A stretch of DNA of 29,035 nt, taken from positions 1 through 29,035 of the IMG/VR virus record IMGVR_UViG_3300005805_000335; one strand, given 5' to 3'. Below, piece after piece: positions 1,619 to 27,016 of this stretch (positions are counted from its first letter, which is position 1; every line of letters begins with the position of its first letter). The notes below the pieces were generated by a model, which ran no database searches, was not told the DNA's origin, and worked only from the letters and a program-made list of their open reading frames with translations. Source of the stretch: a virus (lineage: Duplodnaviria > Caudoviricetes). A program made the translations under genes and the position numbers.

Positions 1619-1642
1619 GACACATGGACACACAGGACACAC
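1618..1642 (+). repeat. Three tandem GGACACA copies spanning the glycosyltransferase start
   Basis: GGACACA at 1618-1624, 1626-1632 and 1635-1641; the same motif precedes the ATGs at 3052 and 4017. Confidence 0.8.
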
Positions 1643-2373
1643 AACTAGATAGTTTCCCCGTCAGCTTTTGCGTTATCGCATCGCATGACGACATGCACAA
1701 GAGCATGCAGGGGATGCTACGCTCACTACCAAAGAACGCAGAGGTTTGCATCCTGCTAAACAAGCAGGGGCGCGAACATCACGTTACTGATATTGTAGAG
1801 CATACCGACGAGCAGCACACAATCCGTTCGCGTGAATGGACATACGAGAAGGGCAAGTTCAGTTTTGCACAAGCTCGCAATCTATGCGGTCAGATGGCAA
1901 CGAAAGAATGGATATTCTGGATGGACTGCGACGAGTACCTTTGCGAGCAGCAGCACGAAGGCATAGCAGAGGCAACGCTTCGGCACGGCGGCGGCGTAGG
2001 TGGTTTTATGGCAGGGCAAGCGTCGCTGTCATGCTATAAGAAGCTAATCGGCGAAGCAAACGAAAACGAATACTTTAACATCGGGCAACTGCGGATGTAT
2101 CGCAACACACCAGAATTCTACTGGGAAGGTTACGCGCACGAGCAGATTGCACACACTATCCGTGGTGCTGGTTACAGCATCGTAGATACAACTATCACGA
2201 TCGCACACAATGGTTACAGCGGCGATCCTGAAGTGCTCAAGAAGAAGCTCATACGCAACACCACTCTGATCGGCAGATGGTTAGCAGAGAACAACGAAGA
2301 GCACGGACTGCATACATTCTATCGCGATACATACGTTCGCGATTTAACAGCACTAATTAAAATGGAGAAATGA
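1624..2373 (+). CDS. Family 2 glycosyltransferase (GT-A fold; SunS/GmaR/flagellin-GT-like catalytic domain, no TPR tail)
   Basis: Motifs SFCVIA, FSFAQARN, WIFWMDCDE (DxD), YWEGYAHEQI, IAHNGY and K..RN..L appear in the canonical order. Confidence 0.85.
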   Translation: MDTQDTQLDSFPVSFCVIASHDDMHKSMQGMLRSLPKNAEVCILLNKQGREHHVTDIVEHTDEQHTIRSREWTYEKGKFSFAQARNLCGQMATKEWIFWMDCDEYLCEQQHEGIAEATLRHGGGVGGFMAGQASLSCYKKLIGEANENEYFNIGQLRMYRNTPEFYWEGYAHEQIAHTIRGAGYSIVDTTITIAHNGYSGDPEVLKKKLIRNTTLIGRWLAENNEEHGLHTFYRDTYVRDLTALIKMEK

Positions 2374-2374
2374 A

Positions 2375-2965
2375 ATGGCACTATCTGGATATGTAATCAA
2401 TGGTGGTCGTAAGGCAGAGTTCTTTACGGTTACTGTTGGTACAACACAGACAACCTTTGCATCGACTACTCCTGTCTATACGTGTAACTCACAGATCACG
2501 TCAGACGGAGCTAACGATGACAATGGTATTCGCACATGGACTCTCGACCAAGTACAGGCAGACTCGCTTTATTGGTCATTTGTCCAGACATACGCACCTG
2601 CTTCTACCTCATCAGCTACAACAGAAGAGCTGACGATGGAAGACGGCGAAATCATCAGCGGTGCATCTGCTGGTAGCACGACTCTTGCTATGCTTGTACG
2701 TGGTGCTACTATATCAGGTGGTACAAACGATGGGAACCGCCTCGCATGGGCTGGTCTTGTTAAGGTTGCAAAGTCATCTGGCTCTGTAAACTTTGCCGGT
2801 ACAGCTTATGTTAAGCCAACGCTTACGGCTATTGCAACGAGCATCACAACTGACTTGCTTGTACCTTCTGCTGTTCTTACGTCGTACACATCGACAACAG
2901 CAACAAGCGTAACGATTGCAGCAGCATCTTACCCATACGGCAAGATGCTTGTTAACCTTGCGTAA
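2375..2965 (+). CDS. Putative tail tube (major tail) protein, Ser/Thr-rich
   Basis: 196 aa, beta-rich, upstream of the chaperone/tape-measure genes and followed by a terminator; about 28% S+T by hand count. Confidence 0.7.
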   Translation: MALSGYVINGGRKAEFFTVTVGTTQTTFASTTPVYTCNSQITSDGANDDNGIRTWTLDQVQADSLYWSFVQTYAPASTSSATTEELTMEDGEIISGASAGSTTLAMLVRGATISGGTNDGNRLAWAGLVKVAKSSGSVNFAGTAYVKPTLTAIATSITTDLLVPSAVLTSYTSTTATSVTIAAASYPYGKMLVNLA

Positions 2966-2988
2966 TTAAGCGTAGTAATACGCATACT

Positions 2989-3040
2989 GGGGGCTGGTGC
3001 TGCTGATCTGTGTCCCAGCAGTTACTGGCCCCCTATTTTT
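2989..3040 (+). terminator. Intrinsic terminator/attenuator after the tail tube gene
   Basis: Stem GGGGGCTGGTGCTGCTG / CAGCAGTTACTGGCCCCC, loop ATCTGTGTCC, then TATTTTT. It is preceded by a GCGTA-GTAA-TACGC GNRA hairpin (2970-2983). Confidence 0.75.
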
Positions 3041-3051
3041 AAGGACACACA

Positions 3052-3663
3052 ATGAAACTAAACGGCATTGAAATAGACCATCTACCGGTCACGCTACGCA
3101 ATCAGCAGATTTGCAAGGACTGGTATCAGCGCATTAGCAATCACATACAGCAACGTAGCGTTGAGTACATGCTCCGCACGATTGCGCGATTGCGGCACGG
3201 TAGCGAAGAGTTAGCCGAGCTAATAGACGAAGTGGGCATGGTCAACAACGTAACGCTTCAGGCGCGAATTACGGGGCTAATAGAGGCACATAAAGCGCAG
3301 CACGAATACGAGAATGAGCAGCGCAAAGAGGCAAAGCAGCCAGAGCTGGAATATGAGCCGATGACGCAGGAAGCAGCGAAGGCAATAGCAGAGCAGGAAC
3401 TGAAAGACTCGCTCGTGGTGCTGCTAAAAGATAGCCCCGAAATAGGACGTCAGATGTACTTCAACCTAGATGCTTTCCCGCAGACGATGGAGTCGATGTT
3501 ATTGGGCATTGACTGCATACGCGCTACGCTCGATTATAGCAAGCTGACAGAGCAAGAATCGGACGCTATCAAGAGCGCAAACGACAGCGAATTTTGGCAG
3601 GACGTGACGGCCTCGGAGGTGGCTCAATACGTTGACCGATTTCGCAGCTCACACAAGCAATGA
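3052..3663 (+). CDS. Tail assembly chaperone (gpG-like)
   Basis: Helical acidic protein, first ORF between the tail tube and tape measure genes. Confidence 0.65.
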   Translation: MKLNGIEIDHLPVTLRNQQICKDWYQRISNHIQQRSVEYMLRTIARLRHGSEELAELIDEVGMVNNVTLQARITGLIEAHKAQHEYENEQRKEAKQPELEYEPMTQEAAKAIAEQELKDSLVVLLKDSPEIGRQMYFNLDAFPQTMESMLLGIDCIRATLDYSKLTEQESDAIKSANDSEFWQDVTASEVAQYVDRFRSSHKQ

Positions 3664-4027
3664 ACTTTTTGAAGTTTGGCGGGTAACATTGTGGAAAATT
3701 CACGATGTGAAGCTGTTAGACAAGTACGGATTCTCACAAGAGCATCCTAATTTTACAATGGACATAGACGATAACTATACCGACACGTTACCAGCTACCG
3801 CATCATCTATGGCAATGGCTCTGCAATACGCTCCCGAATGGGGATTGAGTTACTACGAAGTAATGGATATGGCGTATGCGGAATTCTACAAGCTGGTAAA
3901 CATCCAAAAAGCAATTAATTACAAAAAGCCGTGGTGGACTGGAGATGCGGGCGAGCAGGCCTATGTCTACGAGAAAGCCAGCGGCAAGCGTCTCAACAAA
4001 CCTCGAAGGACACACAATGAATTTTGA
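3632..4027 (+). CDS. Tail assembly chaperone gpT-like segment (probably reached by +1 frameshift, or from TTG 3632)
   Basis: Overlaps the end of the preceding ORF in the +1 frame (open from 3608). 'APEWGLSYYEVMDMAYAEFYKL' resembles gpT-type helices. Confidence 0.55.
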   Translation: MTDFAAHTSNELFEVWRVTLWKIHDVKLLDKYGFSQEHPNFTMDIDDNYTDTLPATASSMAMALQYAPEWGLSYYEVMDMAYAEFYKLVNIQKAINYKKPWWTGDAGEQAYVYEKASGKRLNKPRRTHNEF

Positions 4028-4454
4028 ACCTATCCCGCTATCAGTAGCGAACGCGAAGCTCCTGCAGGAATGGCAAGGGCACATTCAGCAATACATAGCA
4101 GACCATGCACGTACACGCATTATGGAAAGCGTAACGGCTATGTATAATGAAGACCCATCATTTGCAGAAGTGGTGAATAAGGCCATCGAAAACGGCGGCA
4201 ACTACGAAGATGTGGACATCCAGCAATGGGCAAAGAGCAATATCGACAAGGCTATGAAGTTTCGCCAGAGCTTGCACACGCTACCGCATACTATGAGTGC
4301 GCTGAATCTTGGTATTGACTGCATCAAAGCCACAGCGGATAGGACAAAGCTTTCGGAGCAGGACGCAAAAGATTTTGACAATGAAGATTTCTGGCTGCAC
4401 GTTTCGATGGCGGATGTGCAGAAATACTGCAATAAAATACTGGATATGAAGTAA
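4017..4454 (+). CDS. Paralog of the gpG-like chaperone (145 aa; start revised to ATG 4017)
   Basis: Shares 'TM....LGIDCI.AT.D..KL.EQ' and 'FW..V....V..Y' with 3052..3663, and has the identical upstream AAGGACACACAATG. Confidence 0.75.
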   Translation: MNFEPIPLSVANAKLLQEWQGHIQQYIADHARTRIMESVTAMYNEDPSFAEVVNKAIENGGNYEDVDIQQWAKSNIDKAMKFRQSLHTLPHTMSALNLGIDCIKATADRTKLSEQDAKDFDNEDFWLHVSMADVQKYCNKILDMK

Positions 4455-13802: not shown

Positions 13803-13839
13803 TGACGTAATCAATTACTCACTTAACAAGGGCACGGCA

Positions 13840-14052
13840 ATGAACAACTTTAATATCAACGATCGCGTACTTGCAGTAGATGCACACGGATTGCAAAACT
13901 GCCTTACTTGGGAATTAGGTACTGGTATCGTAACAGATACAGAATGGATTGAGGAAGAAGCTGGTCGTAAGGTTCGCAAAGTAGAAGTATACTGGACTGG
14001 AAAAGAATGCACTGGATCGTGGGACGTTGAATATCTTACAATAGCAAACTAA
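13840..14052 (+). CDS. Hypothetical protein, possible SH3/Tudor-like barrel (start revised to ATG 13840)
   Basis: AAGGG ribosome-binding site before the ATG; 'FNINDRV...GIVTD...VEVYW...EYL' strand pattern. Confidence 0.6.
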   Translation: MNNFNINDRVLAVDAHGLQNCLTWELGTGIVTDTEWIEEEAGRKVRKVEVYWTGKECTGSWDVEYLTIAN

Positions 14053-14579: not shown

Positions 14580-15001
14580 GTAAAGAAAAAACAGGCGGTC
14601 ATTGGAAGAACCGAAGAAGAGCAATCATAGGTATGCACGATACGTATAAACTTCAAATGGTTGTTGAGGATCAGATTATGTCTAAATCTTCGGAATGGAT
14701 AACAGATAGATTGCCTACAAAACAAGAGGCAGTAAGTGGCAATGTTATATGTTGTCGATGGGGGCACATTAACCTACTGCAATGGTATAAGATTGAAGCA
14801 GGCGAGCCGTGGATGCCAATTCCGAAACCAGATATGTATGTCAAACCAAAACGATGGACGGTAAAGTGGGGCGGTGATGATGCTGACTTTTTTGCTCTGT
14901 TCGATTCAGGTAAGTTTTCTTATTACTTGCCAATGTTGTTTCGCGAACACGCAGACGCTGCCCAACGTATCGCAGACATCTACAACGAGGTGATGCCATG
15001 A
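14576..15001 (+). CDS. Hypothetical protein with a DUF551-like segment
   Basis: 'EWITDRLP...WMPIPKP' pattern. Confidence 0.55.
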   Translation: MSKEKTGGHWKNRRRAIIGMHDTYKLQMVVEDQIMSKSSEWITDRLPTKQEAVSGNVICCRWGHINLLQWYKIEAGEPWMPIPKPDMYVKPKRWTVKWGGDDADFFALFDSGKFSYYLPMLFREHADAAQRIADIYNEVMP

Positions 15002-17558: not shown

Positions 17559-17923
17559 AGCAAAGAATCGAACGTGTCAGCATTTCTGGCAGGGTCGTAG
17601 CAATACGCGCACAGGTACAGGCAGATCGAGGCGCAAAGTACCGTAAGCAGTTTATCATAAACGATGCTATTAACGAGCGTGACGCCATTGCCGCTGCAAA
17701 GGAGTATATTGCAACGGTAATAGACAAACTAAGCAACATGCCAGCGGAGCGCGAGGTGGTTAAGATCGTTGAAGACATAGTAGACAACGTAAAGCGTATG
17801 GATGCTCATAACACCAACCTACGTAATACGGTTGGCAAGGATGTGGCTGGAGTGCTGGCACGTTATCCGCTATCTACGACCGTCTTCGGATATGAGAACA
17901 CCCTGGGCGAGTGGATCAAATAA
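17555..17923 (+). CDS. Hypothetical protein (start revised to ATG 17555)
   Basis: AGGTG upstream and ATGA overlap; MKQRIERVSISG... Confidence 0.6.
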   Translation: MKQRIERVSISGRVVAIRAQVQADRGAKYRKQFIINDAINERDAIAAAKEYIATVIDKLSNMPAEREVVKIVEDIVDNVKRMDAHNTNLRNTVGKDVAGVLARYPLSTTVFGYENTLGEWIK

Positions 17924-18958: not shown

Positions 18959-19541
18959 ATACCCGAACTGGTTTGACTCGGTAGCACGGGCAAACTTTAC
19001 CGAGTTCCTGCTGCCAGAAGCAGGCCGCGATAACTACCAAGCATTGCAGATAGGCGCATTTGTAGGCCACGCAAGCGATTGGCTATGCAGATACGTGCTA
19101 ACGGGCGACAAATCGATCCTACACGACGTGGACACATGGCAGGGCAGCGATGAAGCGGAGCATGGTTTGTTTGACTGGGAAGATGTGTTTGATACGTACC
19201 TTGACAGAATCGGGCTGCGTGCATACATGAAAGTGCGATACTTCCGCATGACATCAGACAAATTCTTTGAGAGCTACAAAGAAATGCTAGAAATTGGCAA
19301 CCAGTTCGACTTCGTATACGTCGACGGCGATCACACCGCAGATCAGGTATGGAAGGACGGCGCAAAGGGATGGAAGTATCTCAAGCAAGGCGGCATACTA
19401 GCTTTTGATGACTACGAATGGGATGCAGGCAAAGGCCCAGCGTACAATCCAAAGCAGGGGATTGATACATTCCTAGAAGTACACGACGGCGAATACGAGC
19501 TGCTTGCAAAGAACTGGCAAGTGTGGCTGCGTAAGCTCTAA
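18951..19541 (+). CDS. Class I SAM-dependent methyltransferase (Methyltransf_24-like, non-DNA substrate)
   Basis: 'LQIGAFVG.AS', 'VDTW.GS', 'FDFVYVDGDH' and 'LKQGGILAFDDY'. Confidence 0.85.
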   Translation: MTEYPNWFDSVARANFTEFLLPEAGRDNYQALQIGAFVGHASDWLCRYVLTGDKSILHDVDTWQGSDEAEHGLFDWEDVFDTYLDRIGLRAYMKVRYFRMTSDKFFESYKEMLEIGNQFDFVYVDGDHTADQVWKDGAKGWKYLKQGGILAFDDYEWDAGKGPAYNPKQGIDTFLEVHDGEYELLAKNWQVWLRKL

Positions 19542-19613: not shown

Positions 19614-20588
19614 ATGATAGACAACCAAAACAATACGACCCAGACGCTAAAAGATTTCCATGTTCGAGAGGATGTGGACGGTTATATCATGACCGAGGTA
19701 GATCAGTTAGCGTCTGGGTTTCCTATTTATACAATGGACAAATCATGGATCAAGCTCTACCGCAAGATGCAAGATCACTGGGTCTATAAAAACCCAAACT
19801 ATACCAACATCTGGCTGGCTATTTTATGGGGCACAAACTGGAAGCAATCCAAGGTTTTAGTGCATGGCAAGCTGGTAATAGTTGAGCGTGGTGAAATACT
19901 GACAAGCATCAGAACACTAGCACAGCAATCGCACACAAGCGAGAAGAGTGTACGCAACTTCCTAAAGCATGCTGAAGTTGACGGAATGATTTTGCCAAAA
20001 AAGGGCACAGCAGCGACACACTTTATCGTATTGAATTATAACGACTTACAGGAACAGCAATCGACAGAGGGGCACACGGAGGGCACAGCAAGGGCACAGC
20101 AAGGGCACTATCATAAGAAGTTAAGAAGTAAAGAAGGTAAGAATATAGAACAAACAGATAGTGTGAGTATGCGCTCTCGCGCATTCACGCCCCCAAGTTT
20201 CGAGGAAGTTGAAGCATTCTTTACCAGTCTATTCCGCCATGACCTAGCACAGCCCTATTTCGACTATTACACATCCAACGGCTGGCGTGTAGGTAAGAAC
20301 CCAATGAAGAACTGGCAATCAGCAGCACGTAACTGGATTAGAAACGAAGCCAAATACAAACAATCACAAGGATCATCAAATGCACAACCTAGACGAGGCG
20401 ACAGGGAACGGACAGATACAGAGACTTACTACGAACAGCTCGCAAACATTGCCGTTAAATCAGTCAGACAAAGATCGGGCACGGACGGAATGGTTCACAA
20501 GGTTATTGGTCAAATTGAACAATCTGCGGGGCTTGCAATTGGAGCCGAACAGAGCAGAAGCGATACTGGAGGAACTACATTACCGTGA
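19614..20588 (+). CDS. Phage replication initiator / replisome organizer
   Basis: N-terminal 'WIKLYRKMQDHW...RGEILTSIRTLA' winged helix and C-terminal 'FTPPSFEEV...FDYYTSNGWRVG..MKNWQSAARNW'; internal iterons. The true start may be the Met of MDKSWIKL. Confidence 0.85.
   Translation: MIDNQNNTTQTLKDFHVREDVDGYIMTEVDQLASGFPIYTMDKSWIKLYRKMQDHWVYKNPNYTNIWLAILWGTNWKQSKVLVHGKLVIVERGEILTSIRTLAQQSHTSEKSVRNFLKHAEVDGMILPKKGTAATHFIVLNYNDLQEQQSTEGHTEGTARAQQGHYHKKLRSKEGKNIEQTDSVSMRSRAFTPPSFEEVEAFFTSLFRHDLAQPYFDYYTSNGWRVGKNPMKNWQSAARNWIRNEAKYKQSQGSSNAQPRRGDRERTDTETYYEQLANIAVKSVRQRSGTDGMVHKVIGQIEQSAGLAIGAEQSRSDTGGTTLP
20068..20150 (+). repeat. Putative replication origin: four 11-bp-phased iterons plus an A-rich tract
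   Basis: GGGCAC cores at 20070, 20081, 20092 and 20103 (consensus AGGGCACAGCA; extra copy at 20002), followed by TAAGAAGT-like 8-mers. Confidence 0.8.
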
Positions 20589-23458: not shown

Positions 23459-24566
23459 AGCACGGCATCGGCTTTTCGTGGGTGGTATCGGTAGCGGCAA
23501 GACGCTAGCAGGATGCCTTGAGATACTACGGCAGCCGTCAGGGACATTTGGCACGGTCATAGCCCCTACCTATCCCATGCTGCGGGATGCTACGCTGCTC
23601 ACGTTCTTCGAGAAGTTTGGGCAGGCCGTGGAGAGCCACAACAAGAGCGAAGGCGTCACGGTGCTGCGTAATGGTACTACCGTATTCTGGAGATCGGCAG
23701 ACAAGCCGGATTCACTCCGTGGCCCTAACCTAAACTGGTTCTACCTAGATGAAGCGGATTATATGGACGGCGCTACGTGGGACGTTATGCTCGGTCGTAT
23801 CAGGCGCGATCCTACCGCCTGCTGGCTTACTACATCGCCCAATGGTGATACGAACTGGGTATATGAGCGGTTCTACCGCAAGTGGACAGAAGGCAACCCA
23901 GAGTACTTCGTAGCGCAGGCAAAGACAAGGGACAATGTCCACCTACCGCCTGAATACGTCAGGACGCTAGAAGAAACGTACACGAGCGAGTTCGCGCGGC
24001 AGGAACTGGAGGGCGAATTTATCGGGCCAATGGGACGCATCATGCGGAAGGAATGGCTGCAATACGCTCTGCTTCCAGAAGACGATATCAGCTACGTTAT
24101 CGGCGTGGACTTGGCGGTAGGCATGAAGTCCAACGCAGACGATCGCGCTATTGTGGTTGTAGGCAAGCGTGGCACGACCTATTACGTCGCTGATGTGGTA
24201 TTTGGCAAGTGGTCGTTTAACGAGACCAAAGACAAGATCAAGCAGACGGCCTACAACTGGAACGCGGTCAGGGTGTGCGTTGAGAACGTGGCATATCAAG
24301 AGGTGATGGTACAGCAGCTACGAGCCGAGACCATGCTCAACATTCAGGGCGTGAATCCACGCGGACGCAATAAGCTGACGCGATTCCTACCTATTGCGGG
24401 CAAGTACGAGCACGGCTACATCAAACATGTTAATAACGTGCCTTTGGAATTTACAGAGCAGCTGCTTATGTTCGACGGCAAAGATGGGAAACCCGACGAT
24501 ATGGTTGATGCTCTCATCTACGCAGTAAACGGACACGAATCTAACACTTACGTTTACGAGATATAG
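23406..24566 (+). CDS. terL: Terminase large subunit
   Basis: Walker A GGIGSGKT, Walker B 'LRGPNLNWFYLDEA', TTSP coupling motif, nuclease residues GVDLA and DDMVDA. Confidence 0.95.
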   Translation: MIQVTTPLPAQTAFWNSRARHRLFVGGIGSGKTLAGCLEILRQPSGTFGTVIAPTYPMLRDATLLTFFEKFGQAVESHNKSEGVTVLRNGTTVFWRSADKPDSLRGPNLNWFYLDEADYMDGATWDVMLGRIRRDPTACWLTTSPNGDTNWVYERFYRKWTEGNPEYFVAQAKTRDNVHLPPEYVRTLEETYTSEFARQELEGEFIGPMGRIMRKEWLQYALLPEDDISYVIGVDLAVGMKSNADDRAIVVVGKRGTTYYVADVVFGKWSFNETKDKIKQTAYNWNAVRVCVENVAYQEVMVQQLRAETMLNIQGVNPRGRNKLTRFLPIAGKYEHGYIKHVNNVPLEFTEQLLMFDGKDGKPDDMVDALIYAVNGHESNTYVYEI

Positions 24567-27016
24567 TGGCCATAGCCGATTACTTCCAAAAGCTATTTGG
24601 TCGTAACAATCAAGCACTACCAAGCCCTAACGGCACGCAAGTCGGAGGGCGAATTGGCTATCCCTCAAAAGCTGGTTACCTTGCCAACGTCGAGCACGGA
24701 TTCAATCGCAACCCAGTCGTGGCAGCTTGCGTGGGTGTTTACGCATCTACGCTTAATGAGCCGCCTTTGGCTGCTATGTACGACGATGGTACGATCAACA
24801 GGAACCATCCCGTCAGTCTGCTATTTCGCAAGCCGAACCCACGTATGGGTCAAGCTGAATTCTGGCAGATCGTCTGGACATACCTAGCGATAGGAGGCAA
24901 TGCCTATATCGTGAAGGTACGCTCGGCAATGGGCAACATCGTTGAGCTATACCCGTACTCGGATGCTCACGTTGCGCCGCTGCTGAATGATCTGGGCTGG
25001 GTCTACGCTTACCGCTACCAGTCAGGCAACATAACGCAGGACTGGCCAGCCGAAGATGTGATCCACATCCAGAATCCAGCGTACCGCGATCCGGTCAACA
25101 TGCACAAGGGCATAAGCCCTATCAGCGTTGCGTGGGATAAGATCAATACATACAACGAGCTGCAAGCTACGATCTATTCGCTTGTGGCTTCTAATGCTAT
25201 CCCGAGCGGCATCTTATCAGCTCCGGGCGATGTTCCTATTTCACAGGTCGAATCTTTGCGGGCGCAATTGCGTAAACGCAAGGATGCCAACGGCAAAGAT
25301 CGCACGGATGCGATTGTGCTCGGGAACGGGATGTCATACCAGCAAATGGGCCTAGATGCCCAGAAGCTGCAAGCGATTGAGACAACGCAGGAACTTGAGA
25401 CGGCTATCTGCGGTGCATTTCGCATTCATCCAGCCGTTGTATTGACAAGCGCGGGCCTTGCACGCAGCACATACAACAACCTAGCTAGTGCTTACCAAGA
25501 ATATACTACTTTGACCCGTGTTCCGTTCTGGAATGCACTCGAAGAGCAGCTCGAATCGGGACTCCGCAAGGAATTTCCAGATGTTCAGCTTGCTTTTGAT
25601 ACGTCAGAGGTGCAGGCACTACAACCAGACGCTGCAACGGTAGAAGCGCAGACATTGCAGCAGTTCACGGCTAACATTATCACGCTAAACGAGGCACGCG
25701 CAACGCTTAAGTATGAAGATGTCGAGAACGGCGATGTATTCGCATACGAGCAGCAGCCAGCGGGCGGCTTTGGTGCGTTTAGCGCTGATGAGCCAGAGGC
25801 AAAGCAGCTAAAAGCCCCTTACGATGAGATCGACTTTAGCCCTCCGCAAGGTGTGCGCGATGAAGCAGCCAAGGGCCTTGAATGGCGCGAAGAATACGGA
25901 CGCGGCGGAACAGAGGTAGGTGTTGCACGTGCTCGTGATCTGTCGAACGGTCGCAACGTATCGCCCGATACAGCACGTCGTATGGCTTCCTACTTTGCAC
26001 GCCATGAAGTAGACAAGCAGGGGGAAGGATGGCAACCAGATCAGGACGGCTTTCCCAGCGCAGGGCGCATAGCTTGGGCATTGTGGGGCGGTGATGCTGG
26101 CCAGACGTGGGCAAACAAGCTAGTCGGCCAGATGGGGAACGAAGACGAGCGCGAAGGCAGAGCATCCGCACCAGTACAGAACGCTGACCCAATCGAAAGC
26201 GTTGAAGGCCGCAAGGTAAAGTGGCACGAGCCGGAAGCGGTAAAATACTGGCAGAAGCAGGAGGACGTGGTACTAAAGGCGCTTGCACCTACACAGAAAG
26301 ACGTTGCCGACATGATGAAGCGTGTCGAGCGTGCTGTCATGAAACAGGTAAAGTCTAATCGTTTTGTTGGCGTCAACAAAATGGTCAAAGCCCCGCAGGA
26401 TGCTATCAACATCGCAGAGCTTGTTAAGCAGTTCATGGTAGCTAACCGCGAGACGCAGGACGTTCTACGCACTCGCATAATCGAGCTAACACTAGAAAGC
26501 GTGGGTGGTGATCTAACACAGGTGCAGAGCTTTACCGACCAAATCCGCGATGAGCAGATTCGCAAGATGACGGAGAGCATGACCGAATCGCTGAAGACTA
26601 CACGTAAGGATGTGGCAAAGGTACTAGAAGCTAATGCAGGGCAGCCGGTCGATGTAGTGCAGGCGGCATTGCAGAAGAAGTTCACAGAGCTAACCACGTC
26701 CCGCGCAAAGATGATAGCAACGACTACCTGCAAAGCGCAGGCAAGCGTGGTGCAGAACCAGACCGTTAAGCGTGTTAATACTAGAGAGCAAGACCCAAAG
26801 CGCAAGGTAGTGCAAGTATGGCTATCACAACGGGATGATGATGTGCGTCAGACCCATGTAGATTTAGACGGCGAATGGATCGAAGAAGGTGAGACGTTTG
26901 ACCAGTTCGTACCGGGTGCAGGCGAAGGCCCCGGACTGGGCGAACCAGAAGAAGCAATTAACTGTAGATGCACATTGCGTCCAGTTCGTAGATCACGAGT
27001 ACCGGATAGAGACTAA
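24566..27016 (+). CDS. HK97-type portal fused to an uncharacterised domain and a Mu gpF / SPP1 gp7-like minor head domain
   Basis: Portal motifs (NPVVAACV, PNPRM, GNAY, EDVIHI, GISPI, ICGAFRI, ITLNEARA) in aa 1-400; C-terminal 'W...DD.VR.TH...G...INCRC'. Confidence 0.9.
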   Translation: MAIADYFQKLFGRNNQALPSPNGTQVGGRIGYPSKAGYLANVEHGFNRNPVVAACVGVYASTLNEPPLAAMYDDGTINRNHPVSLLFRKPNPRMGQAEFWQIVWTYLAIGGNAYIVKVRSAMGNIVELYPYSDAHVAPLLNDLGWVYAYRYQSGNITQDWPAEDVIHIQNPAYRDPVNMHKGISPISVAWDKINTYNELQATIYSLVASNAIPSGILSAPGDVPISQVESLRAQLRKRKDANGKDRTDAIVLGNGMSYQQMGLDAQKLQAIETTQELETAICGAFRIHPAVVLTSAGLARSTYNNLASAYQEYTTLTRVPFWNALEEQLESGLRKEFPDVQLAFDTSEVQALQPDAATVEAQTLQQFTANIITLNEARATLKYEDVENGDVFAYEQQPAGGFGAFSADEPEAKQLKAPYDEIDFSPPQGVRDEAAKGLEWREEYGRGGTEVGVARARDLSNGRNVSPDTARRMASYFARHEVDKQGEGWQPDQDGFPSAGRIAWALWGGDAGQTWANKLVGQMGNEDEREGRASAPVQNADPIESVEGRKVKWHEPEAVKYWQKQEDVVLKALAPTQKDVADMMKRVERAVMKQVKSNRFVGVNKMVKAPQDAINIAELVKQFMVANRETQDVLRTRIIELTLESVGGDLTQVQSFTDQIRDEQIRKMTESMTESLKTTRKDVAKVLEANAGQPVDVVQAALQKKFTELTTSRAKMIATTTCKAQASVVQNQTVKRVNTREQDPKRKVVQVWLSQRDDDVRQTHVDLDGEWIEEGETFDQFVPGAGEGPGLGEPEEAINCRCTLRPVRRSRVPDRD

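Follow-up and report, generated by a model that had tools for sequence, protein, structure and literature searches.

The DNA analyzed here, which we call the window, is a 29-kb virus record whose first 8 kb carry neck genes, a glycosyltransferase (GT) gene, and the genes for the tail tube protein, a putative tail assembly chaperone, a paralog of this chaperone and the tape measure protein (Table 1). The GT stop and the tube start are 1 nt apart. A GT gene lies immediately 5' of the tube gene in every lineage examined, and the Ser/Thr-rich tube protein may be a substrate of the enzyme. On the basis of structure, the gene that follows GT is assigned to a tail tube protein: the best structural match of its predicted model (pLDDT 79.9) was the major tail protein of YSD1 (Z 11.3; 132 residues aligned at an rmsd of 3.4), and the top rows of the search were filled by tail-tube-type chains. 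No homolog of the tube protein was found in the cultured-phage collection. The next gene likely encodes a tail assembly chaperone, as judged from its position and conserved frameshift layout only; its model is helical, and a Foldseek search matched uncharacterised phage proteins and no named one. This gene appears to use a +1 frameshift rather than the -1 shift that is usual in tail assembly chaperone genes. The extension conserved in relatives is the one in the +1 frame, and TTT.YGC occurs in frame within the last 14 codons of the chaperone gene in 33 of the 36 scoreable relatives; in the other 3 the frame is longer and has TTT.CG at codon 186-191. One account describes UUU_Ynn as +1-prone in bacteria (PMC5009743). 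The paralog gene was found in the window clade (see below) and in the relatives L045 and L048, and is missing from L058 and from a group of relatives with short-loop hairpins. Elsewhere in the window, the C-terminal part of the portal gene product (24566-27016, 816 aa) also matches head-morphogenesis families, which suggests a fusion, and five GGGCAC[AG] repeats clustered within a DnaD-like gene (20003-20100) are likely origin iterons.

Table 1. Genes, hairpins and short sequence elements around the tube gene of the window.
Feature	Position	Strand	Basis or description
Three GGACACA tags at GT start	1618-1624, 1626-1632, 1635-1641	+	2-3 copies per clade genome
Family-2-like glycosyltransferase (GT) gene	1624-2373	+	PHROG 13126, E 1.2e-4; Pfam PF13704, E 3.3e-4 (below the curated cut-off)
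Tail tube (major tail) protein gene	2375-2965	+	structural match
Small hairpin GCGTA-GNRA-TACGC	2970-2983	+	4 nt past tube stop; window clade only
Long hairpin after tube gene	2989-3033	+	17 bp, one bulge; 10-nt loop at 3006-3015
Seed TGTGTCC	3009-3015	+	3' end of the 10-nt loop; predicted unpaired 0.98; 30/30 clade rows
Imperfect U-tract (TATTTTT)	3034-3040	+	sequence
GGACACA tag at chaperone start	3043-3049	+	over SD core and spacer
Putative tail assembly chaperone gene (G-like)	3052-3663	+	position between tube and tape measure genes; frameshift layout
Conserved +1-frame extension (T-like)	3640-4027 (also given as 3632-4027)	+	candidate shift site TTT.CGC at 3640-3645
GGACACA tag at paralog start	4008-4014	+	exact complement of seed
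Chaperone paralog gene, shorter second copy behind the frameshift extension	4017-4454	+	38% identity over 68 aa to 3052-3663, E 4e-14

The long hairpin behind the tube gene has a predicted folding energy of -30.4 kcal/mol (z -3.5). In an alignment of 15 window-clade sequences both sides change in 9 of the 17 stem pairs, and 99.6% of the stem cells are paired, compared with 34-48% in slid controls. For the window and 3 of the 4 relatives tested, the + strand gave the better fold of the two; in the hairpin region of L058 it was the - strand. The covariation of the stem, together with its G-U pairs, points to + strand RNA. The base of the stem is GC-rich and the U-tract after it is weaker in some relatives; an intrinsic terminator is a plausible reading of this layout, and the hairpin is likely the 3' end of the tube message or a barrier within it. 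The terminator scan has no entry for it because the 10-nt loop exceeds the 8-nt limit of the scan. A search of positions 2850-3200 against Rfam gave only a chance-level match (E 1.2) located outside the hairpin, and no + strand sigma-70-like site, a promoter type that the host may or may not use, was found near position 2965. In RNA-library runs that were found with this stretch, long pieces span the capsid gene and the region from the 3' part of GT through the tube gene (2062-3016 and, as several pieces, 2151-2962). One of 10 pieces is located beyond the hairpin, and two runs stop at differing places; as assembled contigs carry no ends, strand or level, these pieces were not counted as evidence. 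The small hairpin that lies between the tube stop and the long hairpin has a GNRA loop in 30 of the 30 clade rows (GTAA in 3, GCAA in 6, GCGA in 14 and GGAA in 7) and a 5-bp stem that is invariant in the 15 aligned rows and so gives no covariation; it is absent from the other seed lineages looked at. A second GNRA-like copy, at 17595, was discarded as being at chance level.

The 3' end of the long hairpin's loop carries a heptamer, the seed, that is complementary to short tags at the starts of the neighboring genes. The preliminary description had pointed out the complementarity between the loop and the chaperone start, and its positions for both heptamers proved exact; the additional copies that it had listed, one at the paralog start and three at the GT start, were likewise found in the sequence. 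Two of the three copies at the GT start are on or inside the coding start, and one further GGACACA copy, at 19130, is unrelated. The number of heptamers is not significant in itself (7 matches vs 3.97 expected, with 8 of 100 shuffles as high), and 22 of the 96 predicted window hairpins have one 7-nt loop-to-start match when a generous list of starts is used. The tube hairpin is the only one of these 96 that matches three starts, and perfect runs of at least 7 nt occur at 3 of the 38 ORF starts of the window, namely GT, chaperone and paralog, and at no others. The match between loop and tags is above chance because of position and covariation, not because of the raw count. The complementarity is thus more than chance.

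To follow the seed and the tags through related phages, we used a table of 38 rows, the window and 37 contigs, 30 of which form the window clade. Excluded from it were L023, in which the tube gene is cut, L049, L056 and L060, which are apparent duplicates of L001, L020 and L048, respectively, the spurious L062, and repeat fetches; L028 is not among the rows, and L137 and L138, viewed later, agree with them. The seed is unchanged in 30 of the 30 clade rows while the surrounding stem varies. The GT tag is present in all 29 clade rows holding that start (25 exact, 4 with one A-to-G change), the chaperone tag in all 29 with the chaperone start (26 exact, 3 wobble-compatible), and the paralog tag in all 27 rows holding the gene. 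The 7 variant tag sites of the clade are all A-to-G opposite U and keep the pairing as U-G. This pattern is weak evidence, A-to-G changes being common and the SD-like core being preserved, and no both-side change of the seed helix was seen within the clade.

Outside the clade, seed and tags differ together. In L048, whose tube protein is 48% identical, the seed is CTTGTCC and GGACAAG stands 2-3 nt ahead of the ATG in GT, chaperone and paralog, with a second copy 10 nt upstream at the chaperone. L045 has the seed CCTGCCC, and GGGCAGG precedes GT and paralog; its adjacent chaperone start has no tag but only a 4-nt run. In L058, which has no paralog gene, the seed is TCCTCGTT and the cognate tag AACGAGGA is found before GT, the register of the site differs, and the chaperone start has a wobble match only. 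The loops of L045 and L058 had been recorded before their target starts were inspected. L097 carries the GT tag of L058 on a contig that ends before the hairpin. When every candidate start of each ORF was allowed, perfect runs of at least 7 nt were found at 3 of 47 starts in G001 (the genome of L048), 2 of 23 in G002 (L045), 1 of 6 in L058, and 2 of 34 in G004 (L011), and the matches fell only on GT, chaperone and paralog. When loops were scored on the starts of another lineage, the longest run was 5. The GT start is matched in all 4 seed types and the paralog in all 3 types that possess it. A simple count puts the chance of finding GT among the matches in all three outside lineages at about 9e-4; the joint chance for all matches, 2.4e-7, overstates the case because chaperone and paralog share ancestry. 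The four seed types lie on separate branches of the trees and count as four independent types, three of them represented by one contig each. Loop and ribosome-binding region, whose covariation in homologs the preliminary description had put forward as a check, thus change jointly across four lineages. A fifth group of relatives (L044, L046, L047, L059, and L061) has ordinary short-loop hairpins, and the three of them that were tested show runs of at most 4 nt at the GT and chaperone starts. The genome collection yielded L061, a short-loop relative from a MAG contig, and the spurious L062. No additional seed lineage came from viral scans queried with GT, the T segment and the adaptor. Distant GT matches (L102-L118) were not used, as they are unrelated large glycosyltransferases in other layouts. 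At the protein level 74 homologs of the tube were found, most of them without retrievable DNA.

The predicted duplex between seed and tag has 7-8 bp and an energy of -9.7 (about -10) kcal/mol, compared with -4.5 for a generic anti-Shine-Dalgarno (SD) sequence, and it overlies the SD core in each of the four lineages. The phage has SD-like starts elsewhere. In the window, the GT and chaperone tags are mostly open (predicted unpaired 0.84 and 0.95, respectively), and the paralog tag is predicted to be locally paired (unpaired 0.36). The two chaperone tags of L048 are predicted to be locally paired (unpaired 0.19 and 0.03), and the seeds of L045 and L058 are partly paired in the minimum-energy fold (unpaired 0.75 and 0.87). 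The pairing becomes less specific once G-U pairs are allowed: non-target starts then tie or beat the targets (-11.7 at 13840 in the window, -12.7 at 14958 in G001), and with the paralog start of G002 the G001 loop reaches -13.1, stronger than the cognate -10.6. Two unrelated hairpins of the 159 in G001 also match three or more starts, and the G002 hairpin is not listed among those with start matches in the hairpin scan. Wobble-compatible tags are also found in the window at 13830, 15210, and 16688, at the starts 13840, 15219, and 16698; an extension to these early genes was set aside because pairing of this strength is not retained in G004.

From these comparisons we consider it probable that the tube hairpin pairs, at long range or in trans, with the tagged starts and damps their translation relative to that of the tube. 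The preliminary description had offered pairing of the abundant tube RNA with several start sites as one of two readings, and this one is supported by the covariation of loop and tags in the four lineages. The GT start, 1.4 kb upstream, is the constant target, followed by the paralog start, 1 kb downstream. An abundant tube-containing RNA would be ended or protected by the hairpin, with some transcripts reading through. In each of the four lineages the seed occupies the 3'-terminal part of the loop and directly adjoins the 3' arm, so that the seed helix would be expected to stack on the stem, with its partner in cis or in trans; the resulting duplex of 7-8 bp would block 30S loading. Once the hairpin has been transcribed, it could close the GT start 1.4 kb upstream in cis. 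The starts of chaperone and paralog could be reached in trans, or at long range in read-through RNA, as tube RNA accumulates. Repression is the likely sign of the effect because the duplex lies over the SD core in every case and the phage uses SD-like starts elsewhere. Against this proposal, the chaperone and paralog starts are not independent, since the two genes share ancestry. The gpG protein of lambda coats the tape measure in many copies, according to one source (PMC5009743), and with such a need strong repression of the chaperone is not obviously useful.

The other reading in the preliminary description was a pseudoknot between the loop and the ribosome-binding site of the adjacent chaperone gene. 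That this local H-type pseudoknot, formed in read-through RNA, is the main function of the hairpin and the distant tags are secondary appears unlikely to us. Its geometry does fit: the second helix of 7 bp, a first loop of 3 nt and the lack of a gap to the stem are canonical, the span across the deep groove is about 12 Å, and all 29 clade rows with the chaperone start retain the adjacent tag, which is doubled in L048, where the two copies lie 19 and 29 nt after the stem. The other side of the structure is less comfortable. The linker of 8-9 nt has to cross 17 bp, about 56 Å vs a reach of 53-63 Å for 9 nt in a rough model; otherwise the base of the stem must open, at a cost of 2.3-8.9 kcal/mol for 1-3 bp. 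In the window, the local pseudoknot is therefore predicted to be strained, not impossible, and it may be a possible secondary state that forms most easily in L048. It also leaves the covariation at the GT start unexplained, and L058 has only the wobble match at the adjacent site. L045 has no adjacent tag yet retains both distant ones, which indicates that distant pairing and not the local pseudoknot is the conserved core.

The sign of the effect could also be the opposite. If pairing docked the tagged starts beside the tube stop, ribosomes that terminate there could re-initiate on them, in a relay or closed loop, and translation would be stimulated. Covariation of loop and tags fits this equally well, 44 nt separate the seed of the window from the tube stop, the targets are neighbors in the tail operon, and the chaperone may be required in step with the tube protein. 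However, the duplex covers the SD core in all four lineages, pairing of this kind blocks initiation in icaR and LhrC (see below), and the GT and chaperone tags of the window, being mostly open by prediction, need no unmasking, so that we regard stimulation as improbable. If it were true, the tube message would itself be the regulator, an RNA-only and re-addressable coupling device that sets the ratios of virion assembly. Improbable, too, is that the heptamer is a protein-binding site, either on DNA, where a heptad could be recognized in both orientations, or on RNA, for a repressor resembling CsrA or RegA; the loop copy would then be an extra site or a decoy. A change in the specificity of such a protein would also make all sites covary, and the tandem copies at GT (2-3 per genome) and the GGA core, which is reminiscent of CsrA sites, resemble repeated operators. 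The lone reversed copy, however, is the part of the loop next to the 3' arm of a stem whose G-U pairs point to + strand RNA, and there an RNA-binding protein would require the sense sequence; the register differs in L058, and no candidate protein was identified in analyses aimed at other questions. Very improbable, finally, is a functionless C/U-rich terminator loop that matches SD-like starts by chance or shared history, as the commonness of single 7-nt matches and the non-significant heptamer count might suggest, given that the match reaches beyond the SD core and is rebuilt in new letters at orthologous genes of three further lineages and that all 30 clade rows have the identical seed within a stem that varies.

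Pairing of the tube hairpin with distant starts has relatives among known systems. In icaR of Staphylococcus aureus, a pyrimidine motif in the 3' UTR is described as pairing with the SD region of its own message, blocking initiation and inviting RNase III, with both sites on one transcript (PMC3868564). The tube hairpin likewise lies 3' of a start whose SD it complements (GT, in 4 of 4 seed lineages); it differs from icaR, as described there, in that its seed is in a loop, that it has two to three targets including downstream ones, and that it reads a lineage-private tag reaching into the spacer rather than the generic SD. The LhrC sRNAs of Listeria monocytogenes, which belong with other anti-SD RNAs that carry a UCCC motif, are reported to use a terminator loop to seed pairing with a purine-rich region before the start codon (PMC4132741), and here, too, the loop of a putative terminator would seed the pairing. 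LhrC, according to that report, is a bacterial sRNA in its own right and has three UCCC sites, whereas the tube element follows a structural gene and its seed varies by lineage; the last C of UCCC closes the stem in the window, the copy in L048 lies at the 5' edge of the loop outside the seed, and L045 and L058 have none. The SAS of Cluster K mycobacteriophages are 13-bp sequences at the RBS position of non-structural genes, presented as having no known function, and four genomes have a single reversed copy away from starts (PMC3203893). They share with our element a private, oriented tag at the RBS of several genes and one reversed copy; the tag described here is different in being 7-8 nt long, of another sequence, located at tail-operon genes and covarying with a loop, and its reversed copy is in a hairpin loop, where the SAS source, in the part available, does not place that of SAS. 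The phage antisense RNAs sar, OOP, aQ, and STnc6030 are said to lower translation, STnc6030 targeting a tailspike message (PMC12197685). As presented there, these are separate transcripts that act mostly in lysis-lysogeny or exclusion, whereas the tube loop is on the same strand as its several targets and would pair through a short seed. With subscription papers mostly outside the search, the literature gave no account of the tube element, nor of start tags paired with the terminator loop of a tail gene. Six supplement files of the IMG/VR structured-RNA catalogue held no match (PMC10690425), and the hairpin may be in the other 3.

Taken at the level of sequence, the tube hairpin is a conserved RNA element that covaries with several tail-operon starts across lineages, and it would exert a variant of loop-seeded anti-SD regulation. 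The late operons of phages are one transcription unit from which very different amounts of protein are needed, and RBS strength, terminators and the G/GT frameshift are among the known levers for this. The element adds a likely RNA-only lever, in which a structural message bears an antisense seed against barcoded neighboring genes. The four natural pairs of seed and tag make swap tests easy to design. Such tests could give a function to unexplained start tags like the SAS of Cluster K and could provide compact orthogonal control of translation.
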